NCBI GenBank assembly: GCA_036310005.1
Contig: JAXJSP010000039.1
Coordinates: forward strand, 2,378-66,377
DNA from: Acutalibacteraceae bacterium
GTDB lineage: Bacteria; Bacillota; Clostridia; Oscillospirales; Acutalibacteraceae
DNA length: 64,000 nucleotides
Reading direction: 5' to 3'
Part shown: positions 1,469-61,914 of the stretch, piece by piece
Layout: each line of letters opens with the position of its first letter
Numbering within the stretch: the first letter of the stretch is position 1
The notes under the pieces: generated by a model
What the model saw: only the letters and a program-made list of their open reading frames with translations
Databases searched by the model: none
What the model was told of the DNA's origin: nothing
Made by a program: the position numbers and the translations under genes

Positions 1469-2806
1469 TTAACTCCAAATTCTATCATTTGAAAATTCTC
1501 TGTCCCATTCAGTAGTAGGCTCAAAATATCCAGGAATTTGCGGATTAATATGTTGTTTAATAACTTCTTCATTAATATCATCAAAACCAAGTCCCGGTTT
1601 TTCAGGCACTTTGATAAATCCGTTTTCAAACAACGGGTTATTAATGCCGGTAACAATATCAGCCCACCAAGGAACATCAACAGAGTGAAACTCAAGTGCT
1701 AAACAGTTATGCATTGCAGCAGCAGTATGTACAGCGGCAAGGCAAGCAATCGGGCTTTCAGCCATATGAACAGCAGTTGCAACACCGTGTTCATCAGCAA
1801 TATCAGAAATCTTTTTAAGTTCCAAAGCACCGCCGCAAGTTAAAATGTCAGGGTGAATTACTGAAACACCGCCTGCTTTAATAAGTGTTTCAAAGCCTTC
1901 TTTAAGATAGATATCTTCGCCGGTACAAACAGGAATTGTTGTGCTGTTTTTAAGTCTGACATATTGGTCTGTGTACATCCAAGGAATCATATCTTCTATC
2001 CAAGCAAGGTTATAAGATTCCATTCTTCTTGCAAAGCGGATGCAGTCTTCAACGCAAATGTGTCCGAAATGGTCGATAGCAAGAGGTACTTCATAGCCGA
2101 TAACTTCTCTTACTTCCTTAACATAATTTTCAAGGAAATCAAGTCCCTTTTCTGTTAAATGAATACCTGTATGAGGATGAGCAGTAGTAACTATGGAATA
2201 ACTCTTTTGATGTTTTACCATATCTGCAGTGACACTGCCGCCTTGAACATTAAGAATATGGCTTGCATATTTCTTCATATCCTCAATAAAGCCTAAAGGT
2301 GCATTTAATGTACCTGGTTCATCAAGCAAAAGACCGATACCGAGGTCCATTTTTAAGAATGTGAATCCCATTTCCATTCTCTTTTTAAGAGCAAGTCCCA
2401 TATCGTGACCTGTATGTTTACCGTCAACATCAGTATCACAGTAAACTCGAACTTCATCACGGAATTTTCCGCCTAATAATTGATATACAGGAACTCCGTA
2501 TGCTTTGCCTGCTAAGTCCCAAAGTGCAATTTCAATACCTGAAACGCCGCCACCCTGACGAGAAGGACCGCCGAACTGTTTAATTTTATGAAAAATCTTG
2601 TCAACATTACAAGGATTTTCACCAACAATACGGCTTTTAAGCATTAAAGCATAAGTTTTAGAAGATGCATCACGCACTTCACCATAACCGCTGATACCTT
2701 GGTTAGTATCAATTCTTAAGATTGTGCATCTTTTCGGTGCTCCATCAATATCAACAAAGCGCATGTCTGTAATTTTTAAATTGCTTGGGTTTGAACACTG
2801 ATTCAT
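1469..2806 (-). CDS. Enolase-superfamily (mandelate racemase/muconate lactonizing) acid-sugar dehydratase-like protein
   Basis: 445 aa. GYGEVRD, FTFLKMDLG, LAIDHFGH and WIEDMIP segments are typical of MR/MLE barrel enzymes. SD aaggag precedes the ATG. Confidence 0.75.
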   Translation of the reverse strand: MNQCSNPSNLKITDMRFVDIDGAPKRCTILRIDTNQGISGYGEVRDASSKTYALMLKSRIVGENPCNVDKIFHKIKQFGGPSRQGGGVSGIEIALWDLAGKAYGVPVYQLLGGKFRDEVRVYCDTDVDGKHTGHDMGLALKKRMEMGFTFLKMDLGIGLLLDEPGTLNAPLGFIEDMKKYASHILNVQGGSVTADMVKHQKSYSIVTTAHPHTGIHLTEKGLDFLENYVKEVREVIGYEVPLAIDHFGHICVEDCIRFARRMESYNLAWIEDMIPWMYTDQYVRLKNSTTIPVCTGEDIYLKEGFETLIKAGGVSVIHPDILTCGGALELKKISDIADEHGVATAVHMAESPIACLAAVHTAAAMHNCLALEFHSVDVPWWADIVTGINNPLFENGFIKVPEKPGLGFDDINEEVIKQHINPQIPGYFEPTTEWDREFSNDRIWS

Positions 2807-2843
2807 AATAATAAACTCCTTTATATTTAATGGGTTTAACTAA

Positions 2844-4205
2844 TTACAATGTAATAACAACATCATTATTATCGTTTTTTAATACATCAAATGTTTTAAT
2901 CTCTCCGTCGATTTCGATTTCATAAGAACCGTAAAAGCCTCTGAAATCGACTCTACCGTTTTCATCGGTCGTAAGATCAAGTTCGGTGTGCCATTTTTCA
3001 TTCAATAAATAATAAAGTCTTTCAGCTGATTTTTTAGGTGTTAAATCTCTGTGGAAAAGTCCGCCGCGGCAATTATTTTCATTCCAACCGTTGCGTGAAT
3101 ATCCTGTTCTGTCAACAGAATTCCAATAAACGATAGTTTCCATTTTAGGAATAGAGAACCAAATAGTATAAAATGTTTCAAGAAGGTCTGCCTGTATAAG
3201 TTCAGCTTCTTCATCATCGCCCGGAGTCGGTATTGTACATTCGGTAATCTCAAGCGGAAGTCCGAAATCTGAAAGATAATCTAATGATTTAAAATAGTCT
3301 TCGGGGTTCATACGGTTTGAATAACTTGCTATTAATTCATCGCTTGGTTGTTCGCCTTCATCAAGTTCAACCGCATAAAAAATATGATTTTGAAAACCGA
3401 TTTTATCTATAGGTGTACCTTTTGCAAGTAATTTTTCAAGTTGTAAATAATACTTTGCGTAATAGCCTTCTTTTGCTATAACATTCAACTCAGGCGCGCC
3501 TTCATTCATTACAAGTGTTTCATTTGGGAAATACTTTCTTGCAAGGTCAAATGCCCATTCTACTATATCTTTCTTATAAGAGAGAATACTTGATTCGCCT
3601 TCATCCACCCATCCGGGAGAACAGAGTGTTTCGTTAATTACCTCAAACTCAAACATTTTTCCGCAATAACGCTCTGAAATTTCACGAAAACGCTTTTCAT
3701 ACAGTTCTCGCATTTTCTTTTCGTCTTGCTTTGGCAACCAATCGGGTATTGCCATATATTTATCATAAAATAAACAATGCAGTTTTGGTAAAATTCCGTT
3801 TTCGTTACAATATTCTACGCAAAGGTCGGGTGCGGGACGACGATATACTTTAGGGCTGTTTTTTTCATAACGGGTTTTACCTTCTTCAGGTTCGGTACCT
3901 TCCCAATAAAAAGGCACGGTAGCCGCATTAAAGTATTTTTTGAACATCTCGCGATATGCAATATTATCCTTTTGATCATCAAATTCGTCTAACATAAAAA
4001 TATTAGCACCGAAATTAAATTCGTGCGTTTTCTGACGAACAGACACTTTCTTATTAACAATCGGATTTCCGTTTTTATCGTTAATAATAAGTTGTTTATC
4101 GCCTTTTCGATACTTTTCAATATCTCGATCGCATCTTTCTTTTGTTGCTTGTTTTTGCTCCTCAATTTTCTCAAACCAAATTTTTCTGATCTCTTTTGAT
4201 GTCAT
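2844..4205 (-). CDS. GH10-like glycoside hydrolase, no signal peptide
   Basis: 453 aa. FNAATVPFYW...EP..G, FEVINETL (acid/base-like NE) and LEITECTIP (nucleophile-like TE) resemble GH10 xylanase motifs. The N-terminus is hydrophilic. Confidence 0.55.
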   Translation of the reverse strand: MTSKEIRKIWFEKIEEQKQATKERCDRDIEKYRKGDKQLIINDKNGNPIVNKKVSVRQKTHEFNFGANIFMLDEFDDQKDNIAYREMFKKYFNAATVPFYWEGTEPEEGKTRYEKNSPKVYRRPAPDLCVEYCNENGILPKLHCLFYDKYMAIPDWLPKQDEKKMRELYEKRFREISERYCGKMFEFEVINETLCSPGWVDEGESSILSYKKDIVEWAFDLARKYFPNETLVMNEGAPELNVIAKEGYYAKYYLQLEKLLAKGTPIDKIGFQNHIFYAVELDEGEQPSDELIASYSNRMNPEDYFKSLDYLSDFGLPLEITECTIPTPGDDEEAELIQADLLETFYTIWFSIPKMETIVYWNSVDRTGYSRNGWNENNCRGGLFHRDLTPKKSAERLYYLLNEKWHTELDLTTDENGRVDFRGFYGSYEIEIDGEIKTFDVLKNDNNDVVITL

Positions 4206-24543: not shown

Positions 24544-25143
24544 GTGATTCACTCTTTAAACGGAAAATTAATATACACAGATTTGAATTGTGTTGTTATC
24601 GAATGTGGCGGTGTTGGTTTTTCTTGCTTTGCATCTGCAAACACGATAACGAAACTTCCGCAAGTAAATAACAACATAATGCTATATACTTACCTCAATG
24701 TTAAAGAAGATGCACTTGATTTATATGCATTTATAGATTTAGAAGAACTTAAAATATTTAAGACTCTAATTACAGTAAGCGGAGTCGGACCTAAAATTGC
24801 TCTTTCAATATTAAGCGAACTGTCGCCTGATAAATTGGTTTCTGCAATAATAAGCGCTAACACAAAGGCTATTTCAAATGCAAGCGGTGTAGGTGCGAAA
24901 ATGGCGCAAAGAATTTGTCTTGAGCTTAAAGATAAAGTCGGAAAAGGCAGTTTTGAAATTGTCGGTCAAGATGTTCCGATTTCAACCGCACAGTCGCAAA
25001 ATATCAGCGATGCGATTGAAGCCCTCACCTCTCTTGGCTACACACAAAACGAGGCATCGTCTGCAATCAGCAAATTAGACGGTACTCTACCGGTCGAACA
25101 ACTAATTAAGCAAGGATTAATTATGCTTGCCAAAAAACTGTAA
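24544..25143 (+). CDS. ruvA: Holliday junction helicase subunit RuvA
   Basis: GTG start directly after the ruvC stop. LISVSGVGPKIA helix-hairpin-helix motifs. Confidence 0.9.
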   Translation: MIHSLNGKLIYTDLNCVVIECGGVGFSCFASANTITKLPQVNNNIMLYTYLNVKEDALDLYAFIDLEELKIFKTLITVSGVGPKIALSILSELSPDKLVSAIISANTKAISNASGVGAKMAQRICLELKDKVGKGSFEIVGQDVPISTAQSQNISDAIEALTSLGYTQNEASSAISKLDGTLPVEQLIKQGLIMLAKKL

Positions 25144-31686: not shown

Positions 31687-32376
31687 ATGACAATTGTTCT
31701 TGATTTAATTATTATTGGTGTTATAATTTTAAATATATTTTTAGGTTCCAAACGAGGCTTTATGCGAGTAGCAATTGAACTTGCAGGATTTGCTGCGGTT
31801 TTACTTATTGCTGTTTGGGCATCAAACAATCTTGCCGAGCCTATTTATAATGATAATTTCAAACAAGGTGTAGAAACTAAAATATCCGAAACCATAACTG
31901 TTGACTTAGATGTAAGCAGCGCTTACAAATCTTTGCCCGAATTTGTCACATATATTTTAAAAATGCAGAACATCGATGAACAAACTATTGAGCAGTATAT
32001 CAACAGCCAGATTGATAAGGGCGCAGAGTCGGTTGCTCCTGCTGTTGCAGATTATGTTGTCAAGCCGATAGTGACATCCGTTATTTCTGCTGTTTTAATG
32101 TTAGCAATATTCCTTATAGGTATGTTTCTTATTAAACTGCTCGCAAAATGGGTAAACTCTTTAATTAAAAAGACGCCTTTTGTCGGTAAAATCAATTCAG
32201 TTTTAGGTGCGGTTGTCGGCTTATTAAAAGGTGTTGTTATATCAATGGCAATTATCTGGATATTAGGTGCAATAACAAGCGTCCTACCAAACGGTATTTT
32301 ATCAATAACACACGATACGGTTGAAAATGCATATATTTGCGGTATTATAAATGATTTAAACCCACTTGTAGATTGA
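31687..32376 (+). CDS. cvpA: CvpA-family membrane protein
   Basis: Starts with a TM helix followed by GSKRGFMR; four TM segments. Confidence 0.7.
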   Translation: MTIVLDLIIIGVIILNIFLGSKRGFMRVAIELAGFAAVLLIAVWASNNLAEPIYNDNFKQGVETKISETITVDLDVSSAYKSLPEFVTYILKMQNIDEQTIEQYINSQIDKGAESVAPAVADYVVKPIVTSVISAVLMLAIFLIGMFLIKLLAKWVNSLIKKTPFVGKINSVLGAVVGLLKGVVISMAIIWILGAITSVLPNGILSITHDTVENAYICGIINDLNPLVD

Positions 32377-58086: not shown

Positions 58087-58800
58087 CTATATTGATTTTT
58101 TCTTTAAGCGTTTATCTGTTTTAGCGGCAAGTCTTGTACCTATACTCTGGAAAATCTGCACCATAATAATAAGCAATATAACCGACGCTATCATAATTAA
58201 ATATTTATATCGGTAGTAACCGTAATTTATGGCAATTTTTCCGAGTCCGCCGCCGCCGATAATACCGCTCATTGCAGAATAGCCGAGAATAGTGGTAATG
58301 GCAATAGTGGCGTTTGAAATAAGCGACGGTATGCTTTCGGGTATCATAACTTTAACAATTATTTGTAAAGGCGATGCTCCCATACTTTGCGCCATTTCAA
58401 TTGTATTGGGACTCACCTCTCGCAGACTGCTTTCAGCAAGCCTTGCTACAAAAGGAAATGCAGCAATAACAAGCGGTACAATAGACGCGGTAGTGCCGAC
58501 AATCGTACCGATTATCAATCTTGTAAGAGGTATTACTAAAATCATTAAAATCAAAAAAGGAACCGAACGAAGTAAATTTATGATAACATTAAGCGTTTGC
58601 AGTAACCACTTAGGCAGGGGCAAAACTCCGTCTTTTTCTCCGGCTACTAACATAACACCAAGCGGCAAACCTATAATAATTGAAAACGCAGTTGAAAGAA
58701 CAGTAACATAAAATGTTTCCCAAATTGCTGTCGGGAACTCTGCTTGGATAATTCTCCACGCTTCATTTAATGCTTCTTGAGAAAACAGACTGTTAAACAT
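58087..58800 (-). CDS. metI: Methionine ABC transporter permease
   Basis: Polytopic permease with an EAA-like loop (EMAQSMGASPLQIIVKV). Follows metN with an 8-nt overlap. Confidence 0.9.
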   Translation of the reverse strand: MFNSLFSQEALNEAWRIIQAEFPTAIWETFYVTVLSTAFSIIIGLPLGVMLVAGEKDGVLPLPKWLLQTLNVIINLLRSVPFLILMILVIPLTRLIIGTIVGTTASIVPLVIAAFPFVARLAESSLREVSPNTIEMAQSMGASPLQIIVKVMIPESIPSLISNATIAITTILGYSAMSGIIGGGGLGKIAINYGYYRYKYLIMIASVILLIIMVQIFQSIGTRLAAKTDKRLKKKSI

Positions 58801-59806
58801 TTACAGACACCTCCTCCGCGAGTACATCCTCTGTTTCGGTCAGATATTTAACAGCGGTAGCAACCACACTTTCATCGCCGATAATTCCAAGTAACATAGA
58901 GCCATAAACTTTTCCGCCTATACTTTTTGTGGCTGCATAAGTGATATTTGCTTCAATACCTTTTTCAACAGCCATTTTTGCAATAAGCGGTGAGCCTGTG
59001 GCCTCGGCACCGTTAAAAATCACACGAATAAAATGTTCGCCCTCTTTAACAGCAAAAGATGAATTAAAATCGCCTTCAGGGAAAACAAGTTTTCTTGCGG
59101 CTTCCGATTGCGGATGAGCGAATACTTTTGCAACCTCGCCCTGTTCAACTACTTCACCGTTATCCAAAATAGCGACATGCTTACAAACGCTTTCTACAAC
59201 GCTCATCTGATGCGTAATAATTATAACTGTAATACCAAGTTTTTCGTTAATGTTTCGTATCAACTCTAAAATAGAATTTGTTGTAGTTGGATCAAGAGCG
59301 CTGGTTGCCTCGTCGCAAAGCAACACTTTCGGGTCGGTTGCAAGCGCTCTTGCGATAGCCACTCTTTGCTGCTGACCGCCTGAAAGTTGTGCCGGATACG
59401 CTTTTGCCTTATCGCGAAGTCCTACAATATCCAATAATTCAAGGGCTCTTTTTTTAGCCTCAGCCTTGCTTTTACCTGCAAGTTCTAACGGGAAGCAGAC
59501 ATTGTTAAGGCAGTTGCGCTGCATCAAAAGGTTAAAGCCTTGAAAAATCATTGTGATTTCTCTGCGTATATTTCTCAAATTTTGTTCTGATAATTCACAA
59601 AGATTAACTCCGTCAATTTCAATACTGCCCTTTGTAGGTCGCTCTAACAGGTTTATGCATCGTACGAGTGTACTTTTTCCTGCGCCACTCATACCGATAA
59701 TACCGAATATATCACCATCCGGAATAGATAGTGATACATTTTTCAATGCTTCGACAGAGCCGTCTGCGGTATTAAAATGCTTTGTTAAATTTTTAATCTC
59801 TATCAT
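58793..59806 (-). CDS. metN: Methionine ABC transporter ATP-binding protein
   Basis: ORF 58793..59860. Start moved to ATG 59804-59806, 6 nt after ggagagg. GMSGAGKST, LSGGQQQR and a C-terminal NIL domain. Confidence 0.9.
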   Translation of the reverse strand: MIEIKNLTKHFNTADGSVEALKNVSLSIPDGDIFGIIGMSGAGKSTLVRCINLLERPTKGSIEIDGVNLCELSEQNLRNIRREITMIFQGFNLLMQRNCLNNVCFPLELAGKSKAEAKKRALELLDIVGLRDKAKAYPAQLSGGQQQRVAIARALATDPKVLLCDEATSALDPTTTNSILELIRNINEKLGITVIIITHQMSVVESVCKHVAILDNGEVVEQGEVAKVFAHPQSEAARKLVFPEGDFNSSFAVKEGEHFIRVIFNGAEATGSPLIAKMAVEKGIEANITYAATKSIGGKVYGSMLLGIIGDESVVATAVKYLTETEDVLAEEVSVNV

Positions 59807-59827
59807 AAATTGCCTCTCCGGTATAAT

Positions 59828-59853
59828 ACCCGACAGAATAAACTCTGTCGGGT
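59828..59853 (-). other. Intercistronic stem-loop between metQ and metN
   Basis: acccgacag / ctgtcgggt arms with an 8-nt loop and no clear U-run. Probably a processing or stability element. Confidence 0.45.
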
Positions 59854-59864
59854 TTACCATTTAA

Positions 59865-60716
59865 TTATTTTATTGCATCAAGAGAAGTCTGTTTACCGCC
59901 GTAAATTCCGAGAGGCTCAACATGAATTTGTGCTACGCTTACAATATGAGTTCCATTTTCGGAATTAAAATCATCGAGATACGGTACATGTTGGAAGTAG
60001 TTTGCATCTATTTCTCCGCTTTCAACTACATTATTAGGTTGAACGTAATCGGTAAATTCTTTAATTTCAAGAGTAATTTTCTTTTCTGCTAAAATAGTTT
60101 TTGCAACTTCAAGAATTTCAGCGTGTGGTGTTGGTGATGCAGCAACAGAAACTGTTTTTCCCGAAAGAGCTGCATAATCAATCGATGAATCGAAACCGTC
60201 GGTCGGATTATCTACAACAGATACAACTGCTCCGTCATATTCGCTTGCAATAAAATCTGCAACTTTTTGGCTTTCAAGGGCTGCTACAAGCGCCTTGATA
60301 ATATCGGAGTTTTCATTACCCTCTTTTACAGCGAGTATATTTCCGTAAGCCGATGATGAACCTTCAAGGCCAAGAGCGTCCTTTGTAGGATTAAGGTCTG
60401 CTTCAATAGCGTAGTTAGAATTGATTACTGCATAGTCAACATCTTTTAAAACATTCGGAAGCTGTGCTGCTTCTACTTCTTTAAATTCGATATTGTGCGG
60501 ATTTTCTTCAACATCAAGAGGTGTTGCGCTTATGCCTGCACCGTCTTTTAACTTAATAACGCCTAAATCTTCAAGTAAGAGCAACGCTCTGGCTTCATTA
60601 GTAGTGTCGTTAGGAATTGCAATTGTAATTTTGTCTGAATTACCGCAAGCGGTAAGTGAAAATGCTGTTGTGATAGCAAGAACTGTAATAAGTAAAAGTG
60701 AAATTATTTTTTTCAT
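59865..60716 (-). CDS. metQ: Methionine-binding lipoprotein MetQ (NlpA family)
   Basis: Signal peptide with lipobox SLTAC. NlpA-family length. SD aaggaga. Confidence 0.9.
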   Translation of the reverse strand: MKKIISLLLITVLAITTAFSLTACGNSDKITIAIPNDTTNEARALLLLEDLGVIKLKDGAGISATPLDVEENPHNIEFKEVEAAQLPNVLKDVDYAVINSNYAIEADLNPTKDALGLEGSSSAYGNILAVKEGNENSDIIKALVAALESQKVADFIASEYDGAVVSVVDNPTDGFDSSIDYAALSGKTVSVAASPTPHAEILEVAKTILAEKKITLEIKEFTDYVQPNNVVESGEIDANYFQHVPYLDDFNSENGTHIVSVAQIHVEPLGIYGGKQTSLDAIK

Positions 60717-60940
60717 GGTTATTATCTCCTTAATTAATTTATTAATAATTATTTTTCCGCCTTTTGACCTTGAATTTATTTTCGTATTTTTTATAACGAC
60801 TAAAAAGCGGATATGTTTATGTTTTAGATTTTCTGATTTTTATAACAAATAAATTTGATTTACTTATTACACATTCGTCCGAAACGAAAATTCGCTCTTA
60901 CGAGTTTTTCAAAATAGTTTTCCATAGGTTTTTACCCTCC

Positions 60941-60982
60941 ATAAAAATAATAATCGGAAGACTCCGACGAAGTCTCCCGATT
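60941..60982 (-). terminator. Intrinsic terminator / candidate attenuator downstream of the Met-rich ORF
   Basis: Minus-strand AATCGGGAGACTTC-GTC-GGAGTCTTCCGATT (14 bp including 2 G-U) followed by ATTATTTTTAT. Begins 25 nt after the ORF stop. Confidence 0.7.
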
Positions 60983-61007
60983 GTAAACAAATATAATTGT
61001 GCAAAAT

Positions 61008-61142
61008 TTAAGCGGCACAAAAGTTTACTTCTGAATAGGAGAACATATCGGATATTTTGGCATAAGAAGTCATGCACATACACCAAGTCTGCATGCACAT
61101 TTCCATCATCATCATTACATTACAAAAGCCAAACTTATTCAT
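61008..61142 (-). CDS. 44-codon Met/Cys-rich small ORF (candidate leader peptide)
   Basis: SD aaaggag lies 8 nt before ATG 61140-61142. Product is MNKFGFCNVMMMMEMCMQTWCMCMTSYAKISDMFSYSEVNFCAA (10 Met, 5 Cys). Too short for the ORF track. Confidence 0.55.
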   Translation of the reverse strand: MNKFGFCNVMMMMEMCMQTWCMCMTSYAKISDMFSYSEVNFCAA

Positions 61143-61189
61143 AAGATGTTCTCCTTTCGTTTTTATTTCCTACCACTTAGGTTGGTATT

Positions 61190-61218
61190 AGTTTATCACC
61201 AAATATTTAATTTGTCAA
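61190..61218 (-). promoter_or_regulatory. Sigma-A promoter for the Met-rich ORF / metQNI leader
   Basis: Minus strand: TTGACA, 17 nt spacer, TG-extended TAAACT. Confidence 0.55.
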
Positions 61219-61296
61219 TAGGAAAATGAAAATTTTTCAAAAAAATTTTTTGTCTGCAAAGTTACAAGTTATTATAAGTTGTAAAATGAAGTATTT

Positions 61297-61914
61297 TTAT
61301 TCGTTTAAATGGGCAATCAAATTATCTAACAATTTCTCTGCGTTTTTCATATTTTGCACTGATTTAGCATTATCTTTATTAATTTTTCGCTTTGTAAAAT
61401 AAGTGTTGGTTGTTATAAAAGGCGAATTATAATTACTGTTAACATATTCGGCAAATTCCGTATCATTTAAATTATATGCAGTACTGTCTTTATCATCAAA
61501 TTTATCATACGTATCAAAAATTACTACTTTATTATTCATTTCATCATAAAAACCATCATCAACTATATAAAGCATAATTTCGTTTCTGAAAGACTCTGCT
61601 TGCATTTTTGAAGATGCTGCCTTAAACAGTTCAGAATCTTGACCTGAATATGTTGATACATCCATAATCTGAACTATAACTTCTCCGTCTTCATTTATGT
61701 CTTCTCCGTATTTTTCAATATAATCGCACATTGAATTAATTACTTTTTCCGGTACATATCTTTTAAAACCTAACATAATCAGATAATCGTTTTCGCGTTT
61801 TGTTGAACATTGTGCTGTTCCTACAATTAATACCGCTATGATAAAAACTGCTAAAACTGTGTGCCACTTATAGTAGTACCAAAAGTTTTCAAACTTCTTT
61901 TTTAAATTCTTCAT
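61297..61914 (-). CDS. Hypothetical membrane-anchored or lipoprotein-like protein
   Basis: 205 aa. N-terminal hydrophobic segment ending in GTAQC. No recognisable catalytic motif. Confidence 0.45.
   Translation of the reverse strand: MKNLKKKFENFWYYYKWHTVLAVFIIAVLIVGTAQCSTKRENDYLIMLGFKRYVPEKVINSMCDYIEKYGEDINEDGEVIVQIMDVSTYSGQDSELFKAASSKMQAESFRNEIMLYIVDDGFYDEMNNKVVIFDTYDKFDDKDSTAYNLNDTEFAEYVNSNYNSPFITTNTYFTKRKINKDNAKSVQNMKNAEKLLDNLIAHLNE

Follow-up and report, generated by a model that had tools for sequence, protein, structure and literature searches.

Methionine genes of Firmicutes are textbook cases of S-box and T-box control. In the classical attenuators (trpL, hisL, pheL, thrL, and ilvL of Proteobacteria; the trp and ilv/leu leaders of Actinobacteria), a small open reading frame (ORF) enriched in the regulatory codons precedes a terminator, and competing RNA pairings are read by ribosome position. 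Here we describe the leader of the methionine importer operon metQ-metN-metI (metQNI) in a 64,000-nucleotide (nt) stretch of an Acutalibacteraceae genome (GCA_036310005.1, contig JAXJSP010000039.1; this whole stretch is referred to as the window). The leader carries a Met/Cys-rich upstream ORF, which we call uORF1, followed by an intrinsic terminator. We propose, with a probability of roughly 0.65 judged from sequence comparisons, that it acts as a ribosome-mediated transcription attenuator, coupling expression of the MetQNI importer to the supply of charged tRNA-Met and perhaps of charged tRNA-Cys.

The nearest system in the literature is actinobacterial. A "metL" leader peptide was predicted from transcriptome data in front of metNIQ in Streptomyces lividans TK24; it is leaderless (…GARCMCRRMCAF), has 2 internal Met residues, and was reported with no typical Rho-independent terminator (PMC8079986). 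It shares with uORF1 the layout of a Met/Cys short ORF before a methionine ATP-binding cassette (ABC) importer, and its CMCxxMCxF resembles the MCMCxMCMF of the Clostridial peptides; it differs in its actinobacterial origin, its leaderless start, its two internal Met residues, and the lack of a typical terminator. Mycobacterial polycysteine leaderless uORFs are reported to be Cys-responsive attenuators (bioRxiv 10.1101/834739), and an earlier survey of Actinobacteria predicted Cys-run leader peptides without terminators and found no RNA regulatory structure for methionine operons (PMC1262725). These polycysteine uORFs have in common with the Clostridial leader their sulfur amino acid codons and the sulfur metabolism genes downstream, but they are Cys-only, leaderless, and reported without terminator hairpins, whereas uORF1 is led by a Shine-Dalgarno (SD) sequence, Met dominates its codon run, and a strong intrinsic terminator follows. 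Full-text literature searches yielded no description of this Clostridial family and, except for the predicted Streptomyces metL, no methionine-codon leader peptide attenuator; an earlier note on this DNA, made from the sequence alone, had likewise been aware of no such mechanism for metNIQ in Clostridia.

Compared with the classical attenuators, the Clostridial leader has every structural hallmark except a strong antiterminator. What sets it apart is its Met specificity (with or without Cys), its occurrence in the class Clostridia, and the predominance of transporter genes among its presumed targets. Its wiring also appears different: segment 1 would be the leader's own ribosome binding site (RBS) and not the regulatory codons, and the antiterminator would be a short pairing between SD-like and anti-SD-like sequences. 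The regulatory codons themselves form a conserved hairpin, and a companion uORF follows the terminator. The leader would best be filed as a form of ribosome-mediated attenuation with a new specificity, in a new lineage, and with unusual wiring.

A Met/Cys-rich leader ORF tied to methionine genes

The features of the leader and operon are as follows (bp, base pairs); regions 1 to 4 are the candidate pairing segments considered further on.

61190-61218, minus strand: leader promoter, sigma-70 type (TTGACA at 61218-61213, 17-nt spacer, TG-extended TAAACT at 61195-61190)
61169-61181, minus strand: small hairpin near the predicted 5′ end, CCTAagtggTAGG, read directly
61146-61158, minus strand: region 1, the RBS of uORF1, GAAAGGAGAACAU, about 30 nt past the promoter, with the SD core at 61154-61151
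61008-61142, minus strand: uORF1, Met/Cys-rich leader peptide of 44 codons plus stop, encoding MNKFGFCNVMMMMEMCMQTWCMCMTSYAKISDMFSYSEVNFCAA
61072-61100, minus strand: hairpin formed from Met/Cys codons, AUGUGCAUGCA ... UGUAUGUGCAU, 11 bp
61037-61046, minus strand: region 2, anti-SD-like segment AUGUUCUCCU in codons 33-36, with either region 1 or the terminator GGGAGA as its partner
60942-60982, minus strand: intrinsic terminator, with a 14-bp stem at 60982-60952 and a T-rich tail at 60951-60942, ATTATTTTTA
60973-60978, minus strand: SD-like GGGAGA of region 3, the terminator 5′ arm; region 4 is the 3′ arm
60860-60940, minus strand: second leader ORF, with SD GGAGGG at 60940-60935 and uORF2 at 60925-60860, encoding MENYFEKLVRANFRFGRMCNK and containing the invariant CGAATGTG at 60877-60870
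59865-60716, minus strand: metQ, methionine-binding lipoprotein (best NCBIfam match MetQ; relatives up to 84% identical)
58793-59860, minus strand: metN, ATPase (TIGR02314 ABC_MetN, E = 7e-110)
58087-58800, minus strand: metI, permease (NF008049, E = 1e-58)

The earlier note had reported the promoter, SD, ORF, terminator, and metQ-metN-metI on the minus strand, and each was found where it had been placed. The promoter agrees with the consensus at 10 of 12 positions, and TTGACA/TACAAT promoters occupy the equivalent spot in L001 and L081 (L-numbers are our labels for the compared loci). The SD, AAAGGAG at 61157-61151, lies 8 nt ahead of the ATG at 61142. Codons 10-24 of uORF1 include 8 Met and 3 Cys; among some 57,700 stop-free 15-codon windows in the six frames of the 64 kb, counts of 7 to 11 Met plus Cys occurred only inside uORF1, the best count elsewhere being 6. 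For reference, Met accounts for 3.1% of codons in seven neighboring genes, and the G+C content of the window is 34%. The terminator begins 25 nt past the uORF1 stop, with a stem of -19.3 kcal/mol, and from there to metQ a promoter scan of the minus strand turned up nothing promoter-like. The leader is, in its plan, that of an attenuator: an SD-led short ORF, clustered Met/Cys codons, and an intrinsic terminator before metQNI. The sole other Cys-dense stretch in the window is a stop-free frame at 32022-32080 on the plus strand, which lacks Met and has Cys at 6 codons in 15.

We looked for known RNA families with Rfam. At gathering thresholds, the whole window gave two tRNAs as the only matches and no riboswitch or T-box; at E ≤ 10 over 60500-61500 there was no credible match, weak hits to snR79 and RT-6 (E of 3 to 7) being attributable to chance. 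When 40 related loci were searched, no known RNA family was found on the 19 related uORF1 leaders, and the identical search did detect T-boxes in L040 and L077. The leader is neither an S-adenosylmethionine (SAM) riboswitch (SAM-I to SAM-VI) nor a T-box, which bears out, for the window and its 19 relatives, the earlier failure to recognize an S-box or T-box core by eye.

To place uORF1 among its relatives, we compared 80 loci with MetQ relatives (63 to 84% identity) from Lachnospiraceae, Oscillospiraceae, Acutalibacteraceae, Christensenellaceae, Anaerovoracaceae, and other Clostridia, scoring as uORF1-type any frame that is open throughout and holds, per 15 codons, 4 or more Met and 6 or more Met plus Cys. 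Such a frame was present in 29 of the 80 loci, always on the metQ strand and 150 to 375 nt upstream of metQ, and was nearly missing from the other ~1 Mb scanned on both strands. A G+C-rich hairpin followed by a T run lies between uORF1 and metQ in all 29, and a terminator was found in 47 of the 48 uORF1 relatives that have enough flanking sequence. In the 29 loci an SD lies 4 to 16 nt ahead of an in-frame start codon, all related leaders have an SD and such a start, and the frame is open for 23 to 63 codons in every member. The consensus is M-x6-MMMM-x-MCMC-x-MCM-x3-A-x2-S-x2-LS, with a median of 7 Met in the 13 codons of the core (Met run at codons 9-21) and poorly conserved N and C termini. 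Across several families of Clostridia, then, the Met/Cys richness, the SD, and the terminator are kept, which settles the question of conservation that the earlier note had raised.

The family is present in the protein databases, without a name. An Acutalibacteraceae metagenome-assembled genome has the identical uORF1 peptide among its "hypothetical" proteins, and the exact peptide occurs on 13 contigs. A profile search of 5.8 billion proteins gathered 132 clusters (at 90% identity; 32 to 71 residues), all unnamed or "hypothetical" and none with a Pfam domain; the uORF1 peptide itself has no Pfam or NCBIfam match.

The link to methionine genes was examined with a scan of metagenome contigs that was blind to context, using the DNA pattern ATGTGCATGTGYNNNATGTGCATG without reference to metQ. 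The scan returned 120 stretches, among which were 38 genuine leader ORFs; most raw pattern matches were eukaryote-like TG/CA microsatellites and were discarded. The gene downstream could be identified for 31 of these leaders, and every time it belonged to a methionine importer operon, ordered metN-metI-metQ in three cases and metQ-metN-metI in the others; the idea that Met-rich uORFs of this type might stand before unrelated genes was rejected on this basis. Two more family members on long contigs are also ahead of metQ-metN-metI, and a third (L206/L207) is ahead of a gene for a Cys_Met_Meta_PP (pyridoxal phosphate) enzyme, followed by a MetQ-like gene. L206 has, in addition, another Met-rich uORF at 1960-2200, MDKVACSFNVFMCTMAAVHQMMMCSFRRGQMNMF; it is led by an SD, its tail (CUCUUUUC) is complementary to the RBS, and a terminator of its own stands between it and a Meth_synt_2 (MetE-like) gene, so that transporters are not the only genes to carry the device.

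Where uORF1 is missing, other elements can be seen in front of metQ. L040 and L077 carry a Met-type T-box directly upstream of metQ. The Met T-boxes (RF00230) share with the uORF1 leader this position, a presumed tRNA-Met-charging signal, and terminator readthrough as output; they bind tRNA directly, whereas the Clostridial leader lacks T-box sequence or structure and would sense through the translating ribosome. In loci without uORFs (L002, L021, L028, L033, L068, L079, and L080), TATAG...CTATA palindromes lie 60 to 150 nt upstream of metQ, those of L021 adjoining a gene for a LysR-type regulator; they seem to resemble the MET boxes of streptococci. Because T-boxes or palindromes are found where uORF1 is missing, interchangeable methionine-responsive devices appear to occupy the leader position. 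Nothing speaks more strongly than this interchange for counting the unit of uORF and terminator among such devices, and it seems likely that the leader is a cis-regulatory element that responds to Met.

The same comparisons bear on a different reading, also raised in the earlier note, in which uORF1 encodes a functional Met/Cys-rich micropeptide (a metal or redox buffer or a MetNIQ accessory factor) and the terminator merely sets stoichiometry. Met- and Cys-rich peptides can bind soft metals, the exact peptide recurs on multiple contigs as noted above, and gene callers predict many of its relatives. This reading fits poorly with a strong terminator standing between ORF and operon in nearly all relatives, with methionine genes downstream that include biosynthetic ones, with a peptide whose ends drift and which matches no domain family, and with a tail constrained at the RNA level (see below). 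It also has to accommodate L001, the closest relative (MetQ 84% identical), where at 2760-3000 the promoter, the 5′ segment, the hairpin plus T run, and uORF2 are kept and uORF1 is lost. We consider a micropeptide function very improbable. A ribosomally made, posttranslationally modified peptide (RiPP) or bacteriocin precursor was disfavored, given neighbors consisting of metQNI and, upstream of the leader, an unrelated 205-amino-acid ORF without a family match, and given the transporter context in all relatives examined.

The loss of uORF1 from L001 suggests a modular leader unit, one that can be acquired or dropped even between closely related genomes. L081, the contig that carries a 65%-identical peptide (P0002), has at 830-2320 the leader and terminator followed by an opposite-strand IS91-family transposase gene in place of metQ, which looks like an insertion that severed the operon from its leader. 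At the predicted 5′ end of metQ leaders, we also noticed an inverted repeat, CCTAC-N4-6-GTAGG, in the window (61169-61181), L081 (~585-600), L006, L048, and L055; GGTAGGT is found within the promoter spacer of L001, L081, and L024. The repeat could be an operator or a 5′ stabilizing hairpin.

Competing pairings and the attenuation model

We imagine that the leader works through four segments: 1, the uORF1 RBS; 2, anti-SD-like pyrimidines in the tail of uORF1 (UUCUCCU here); 3, SD-like purines (GGGAGA); and 4, the terminator 3′ arm. With no ribosome on the leader, 1 would pair with 2, leaving 3 and 4 to form the terminator, and transcription would stop. A ribosome that has run through uORF1 would cover segment 2, again allowing 3:4 to form and transcription to stop. 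When Met-tRNA is scarce, the lead ribosome would stall on the Met run with segment 2 still free; since the run starts far enough from the start codon, a second ribosome or 30S subunit could occupy the RBS behind the stalled one. Segment 2 would then pair with 3, the terminator would not form, and RNA polymerase would read into metQNI. Our confidence in this specific 1:2 / 2:3 mechanism is lower than that in a Met-responsive leader.

The first of these pairings is seen in the minimum free energy (MFE) fold of the window leader, in which the RBS GAAAGGAGAACAU (61158-61146) pairs with AUGUUCUCCUAUUC in codons 33-37 and the MCM...CMCM codons form the 11-bp hairpin; region 1 pairs with 61046-61034 at -16.4 kcal/mol, and the whole leader folds better than shuffled versions of itself (z = -4.4). 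In relatives, the codons for the conserved tail motif [FI]S[DN]x[FL]S read UCCGAU..UUCUCC, CUUUCC, or CUCUCC, a stretch complementary to each leader's own SD plus spacer. Compensatory differences between RBS and tail can be read by eye: AACAU/AUGUU in the window and L081, AACAC/GUGUU in L003, GAGCA/UGCUC in L039, and AAGCAU/AUGCUU in L020. Comparison of RNAduplex energies with mononucleotide shuffles gave a mean z of only about -0.8, and cross-locus permutation tests were used instead. Among 48 nonredundant leaders, the RBS paired with its own tail at a mean of -13.9 kcal/mol, versus -11.4 kcal/mol with tails taken from the other leaders (permutation P = 5e-5) and -7.4 kcal/mol with its own N-terminal coding part. 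When 18 leaders were aligned in a fixed register, 83% of cells in the 1:2 helix were paired, versus 23 to 70% with the partner slid, and five pairs had double changes, a number that 4 of 500 shuffles attained.

The second pairing, 2:3, involves UCUCCU in codons 34-36 of the window uORF1 and GGGAGA of the terminator (-8.7 kcal/mol), and it shares 6 nt with the 1:2 pairing. An SD-like purine motif is present in the 5′ arm of 20 of 25 leader terminators but in only 15 of 144 other terminators from the same DNA (Fisher P = 2e-12). Tails pair with their own terminator arm at a mean of -11.0 kcal/mol, compared with -9.9 kcal/mol for the arms of other leaders (P = 5e-4), and in 36 of 47 leaders 1:2 and 2:3 share at least 3 nt. 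A predicted 1:2 / 2:3 / 3:4 topology like that of classical attenuators, with the RBS as segment 1, is thus supported statistically across the family. The earlier note had found partial alternative pairings and no clean antiterminator; UCUCCU:GGGAGA is now a probable one, backed by family-wide statistics, and it still amounts to only 6 bp in the window. Family geometry is in keeping with the model: at the median, the first Met of the run is at codon 9, and region 2 extends from 17 nt past the last Met to 9 nt before the stop. In such a median member, a second ribosome would have space on the RBS behind a stalled one, and region 2 would be free when a ribosome stalls on the run and covered when a ribosome is at the stop codon.

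The Met/Cys codons seem to have a structural role of their own. Cys codons within M-C-M are TGC 61 times and TGT 3 times, compared with 54 and 34 in the rest of these ORFs (P = 7e-7); Tyr codons within M-Y-M are TAC 9 times and TAT once, versus 7 and 25 elsewhere (P = 2e-4). The sequences favored by this codon choice, AUGUGCAU and AUGUACAU, are self-complementary, so Cys codons may serve partly for structure. RNAalifold gives the resulting hairpin as the consensus helix of 18 leaders; 96.9% of its cells are paired, it shows no compensatory double changes, and it is modestly more stable than codon-shuffled cores (mean z = -0.61; 73% of values below 0). TTT directly follows the last clustered Met in 12 of 48 leaders, being the commonest single codon there, and would give a hairpin-plus-U arrangement. 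One can envision that this hairpin may act as a pause or synchronizing structure that a ribosome has to melt.

A conserved hairpin, nucleotide-level codon bias, and a leader fold well beyond its shuffles are also what one would expect if translation were incidental and the AUG repeats and AUGYRCAU palindromes bound a ligand or a protein, such as a TRAP-like triplet reader, that controls the terminator. All AUG triplets are in one frame, though, behind an SD and a start codon in a frame that stays open in every member, and N-terminal spacers that differ in sequence keep that frame. No Rfam family matches, and the core helix lacks compensatory changes. We find such an RNA element improbable. TRAP-type triplet repeats in particular do not fit, because the AUG spacers are 0 or 3n nt within the single translated frame and not a variable 2 to 3 nt.

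The same codon bias argues against a nascent-peptide sensor, in which MMMxMCMCxMCMF...S[DN]xLS would arrest the ribosome with methionine, SAM, or homocysteine, much as TnaC does with tryptophan, the terminator remaining the output and codon starvation not being the signal. In favor of such a sensor, the peptide has a more specific pattern than a simple run of Met, with M-C-M-C in alternation and Ala and Ser kept in its tail; TCC, TCA, and TCT all serve for the first Ser of that tail motif, suggesting constraint at the amino acid level, and the S. lividans metL peptide has a similar CMCxxMCxF. On the other side, nucleotide-level bias is seen in the M-C-M and M-Y-M codons, an RNA pairing that covaries with the RBS falls on the tail motif, and residues between the Mets vary widely (C, Y, R, D, E, G, S, and A), Met count being kept better than exact sequence. 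A peptide sensor at uORF1 is in our view unlikely, though somewhat less so than a purely RNA-based element.

Several considerations weigh against the attenuation model itself. Covariation in 1:2 is modest: the fixed-register alignment contains only five pairs with double changes. On the 18 leaders, the Met-core hairpin was all that RNAalifold recovered; it missed the RBS:tail helix because subfamilies differ in their pairing register. In the window, 8 codons separate region 2 from the stop, and a ribosome terminating there would leave it uncovered, in contrast to the typical member. MFE folding with simulated ribosomes stalled at codons 10 to 45, or with none, always left the terminator in place, so that thermodynamics gives no classical antiterminator, and the 6-bp antiterminator (-8.7 kcal/mol) faces a terminator of -19.3 kcal/mol. 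Given a terminator that is never displaced in folding, a short 2:3 helix, and a region 2 far from the stop, the switch would have to be kinetic. A ribosome stalled in the loop does not by itself forbid 1:2, and we infer the step in which a second ribosome occupies the RBS. Methionine starvation also limits initiation, which complicates any sensor built on Met codons. Finally, RNA polymerase of Bacillus subtilis reportedly outruns ribosomes; if this is so in Clostridia, coupling would need a pause.

Ribosome-mediated attenuation, the reading first put forward in the earlier note, nonetheless draws support from the lack of a known RNA family, the conserved ORF and terminator, the link to methionine genes, and the T-boxes in orthologous loci; none of the refuting conditions that could be checked from sequence spoke against it.

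A second conserved ORF after the terminator

Transcripts that pass the terminator would encounter uORF2. Similar ORFs are found ahead of metQ in 27 of the 80 loci, 11 of them after uORF1 and its terminator and 16 alone (including L001). They have the form ...FEKLVRANFRFGRM[C] (...RANFRFGRM in the window) with a strong SD, as seen in the window, L001 (2873-2941), L003, L022, L048, L066, L074, L078, and L206 (~3729-3788); in L206, uORF2 comes after uORF1 and ahead of the Cys_Met_Meta_PP gene. Conserved residues vary synonymously, with four codons used for Leu, four for Gly, and AGA, CGC, CGT, or CGG for the upstream Arg, and uORF2 therefore appears constrained as a peptide. The last Arg is always CGA (12 of 12 in a motif search that did not require it), making the CGA-AUG pair invariant; L202 shows a natural variant with ACG for the AUG. 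The codon following this Met is UGA, UGU, UGC, or UGG in 23 of 26 cases, and the stop is UGA in 19 of 26.

It is worth noting that short conserved peptides with critical residues at the C terminus, next to the stop codon, are also characteristic of arrest peptides of the TnaC and SpeFL type. uORF2 differs from these in having no sequence similarity to them, in its invariant CGA-AUG pair followed by UGN, and in the lack of a rut-like skew in the window. Rho involvement was considered and set aside: C>G skew downstream of uORF2 is weak (1.21 versus 0.82 to 0.94), and in the window this downstream stretch has 13 C and 13 G. Likewise, a pairing of CGAAUGUG with CACAUUC near the metQ RBS is available at only some loci and not in the window, and a second CGAATGTG at 24600 of the window lies inside a 199-amino-acid ORF and is coincidental.

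The conserved uORF2 is probably a second, translation-dependent checkpoint. By way of speculation, it might sense methionine supply through a single "hungry" AUG behind a slowly decoded CGA, or it might be an arrest peptide.

An unusual arrangement was seen in L021 and L023 (706-776 and 805-888). There, a gene resembling tRNA-Met, with the anticodon CAU, an Rfam score of 50 bits, and D and T loops that are atypical, has an SD about 10 nt behind it, and then come a uORF2-like ORF, VKIKFESLVRKNYRFGRMCSCCCSHNF, and a terminator. The unit lies upstream of a ThiF/TcdA-like gene (identified by eye) and of the LysR regulator that precedes metQ.

Possible methionine control in gut and rumen Clostridia

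Taken together, the two ORFs might form a two-stage methionine sensor that defines an unrecognized regulon of gut and rumen Clostridia. The first stage would be the Met/Cys-codon attenuator, built from the RBS of uORF1 and the SD-like terminator arm; at the second, uORF2 would sense Met-tRNA or free methionine and control translation or survival of the readthrough transcript. We offer this broader scheme tentatively and regard it, as a whole, as doubtful. If true, leader peptides would stand in for the T-box and S-box in a lineage regarded as poor in ribosome-coupled attenuation, and uORF2, with its CGA-AUG pair, may be a new translational sensor.

The proposed attenuator offers a test case for ribosome-coupled attenuation in Firmicutes, where transcription reportedly outruns translation. 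Its design is compact, the tail of an ORF being able to pair both with the RBS of that ORF and with a terminator arm that is SD-like, and could be sought elsewhere. The uORF1 family belongs to uncultured Clostridia of the gut and rumen, and it would therefore fill a gap in the reconstruction of their methionine regulons.

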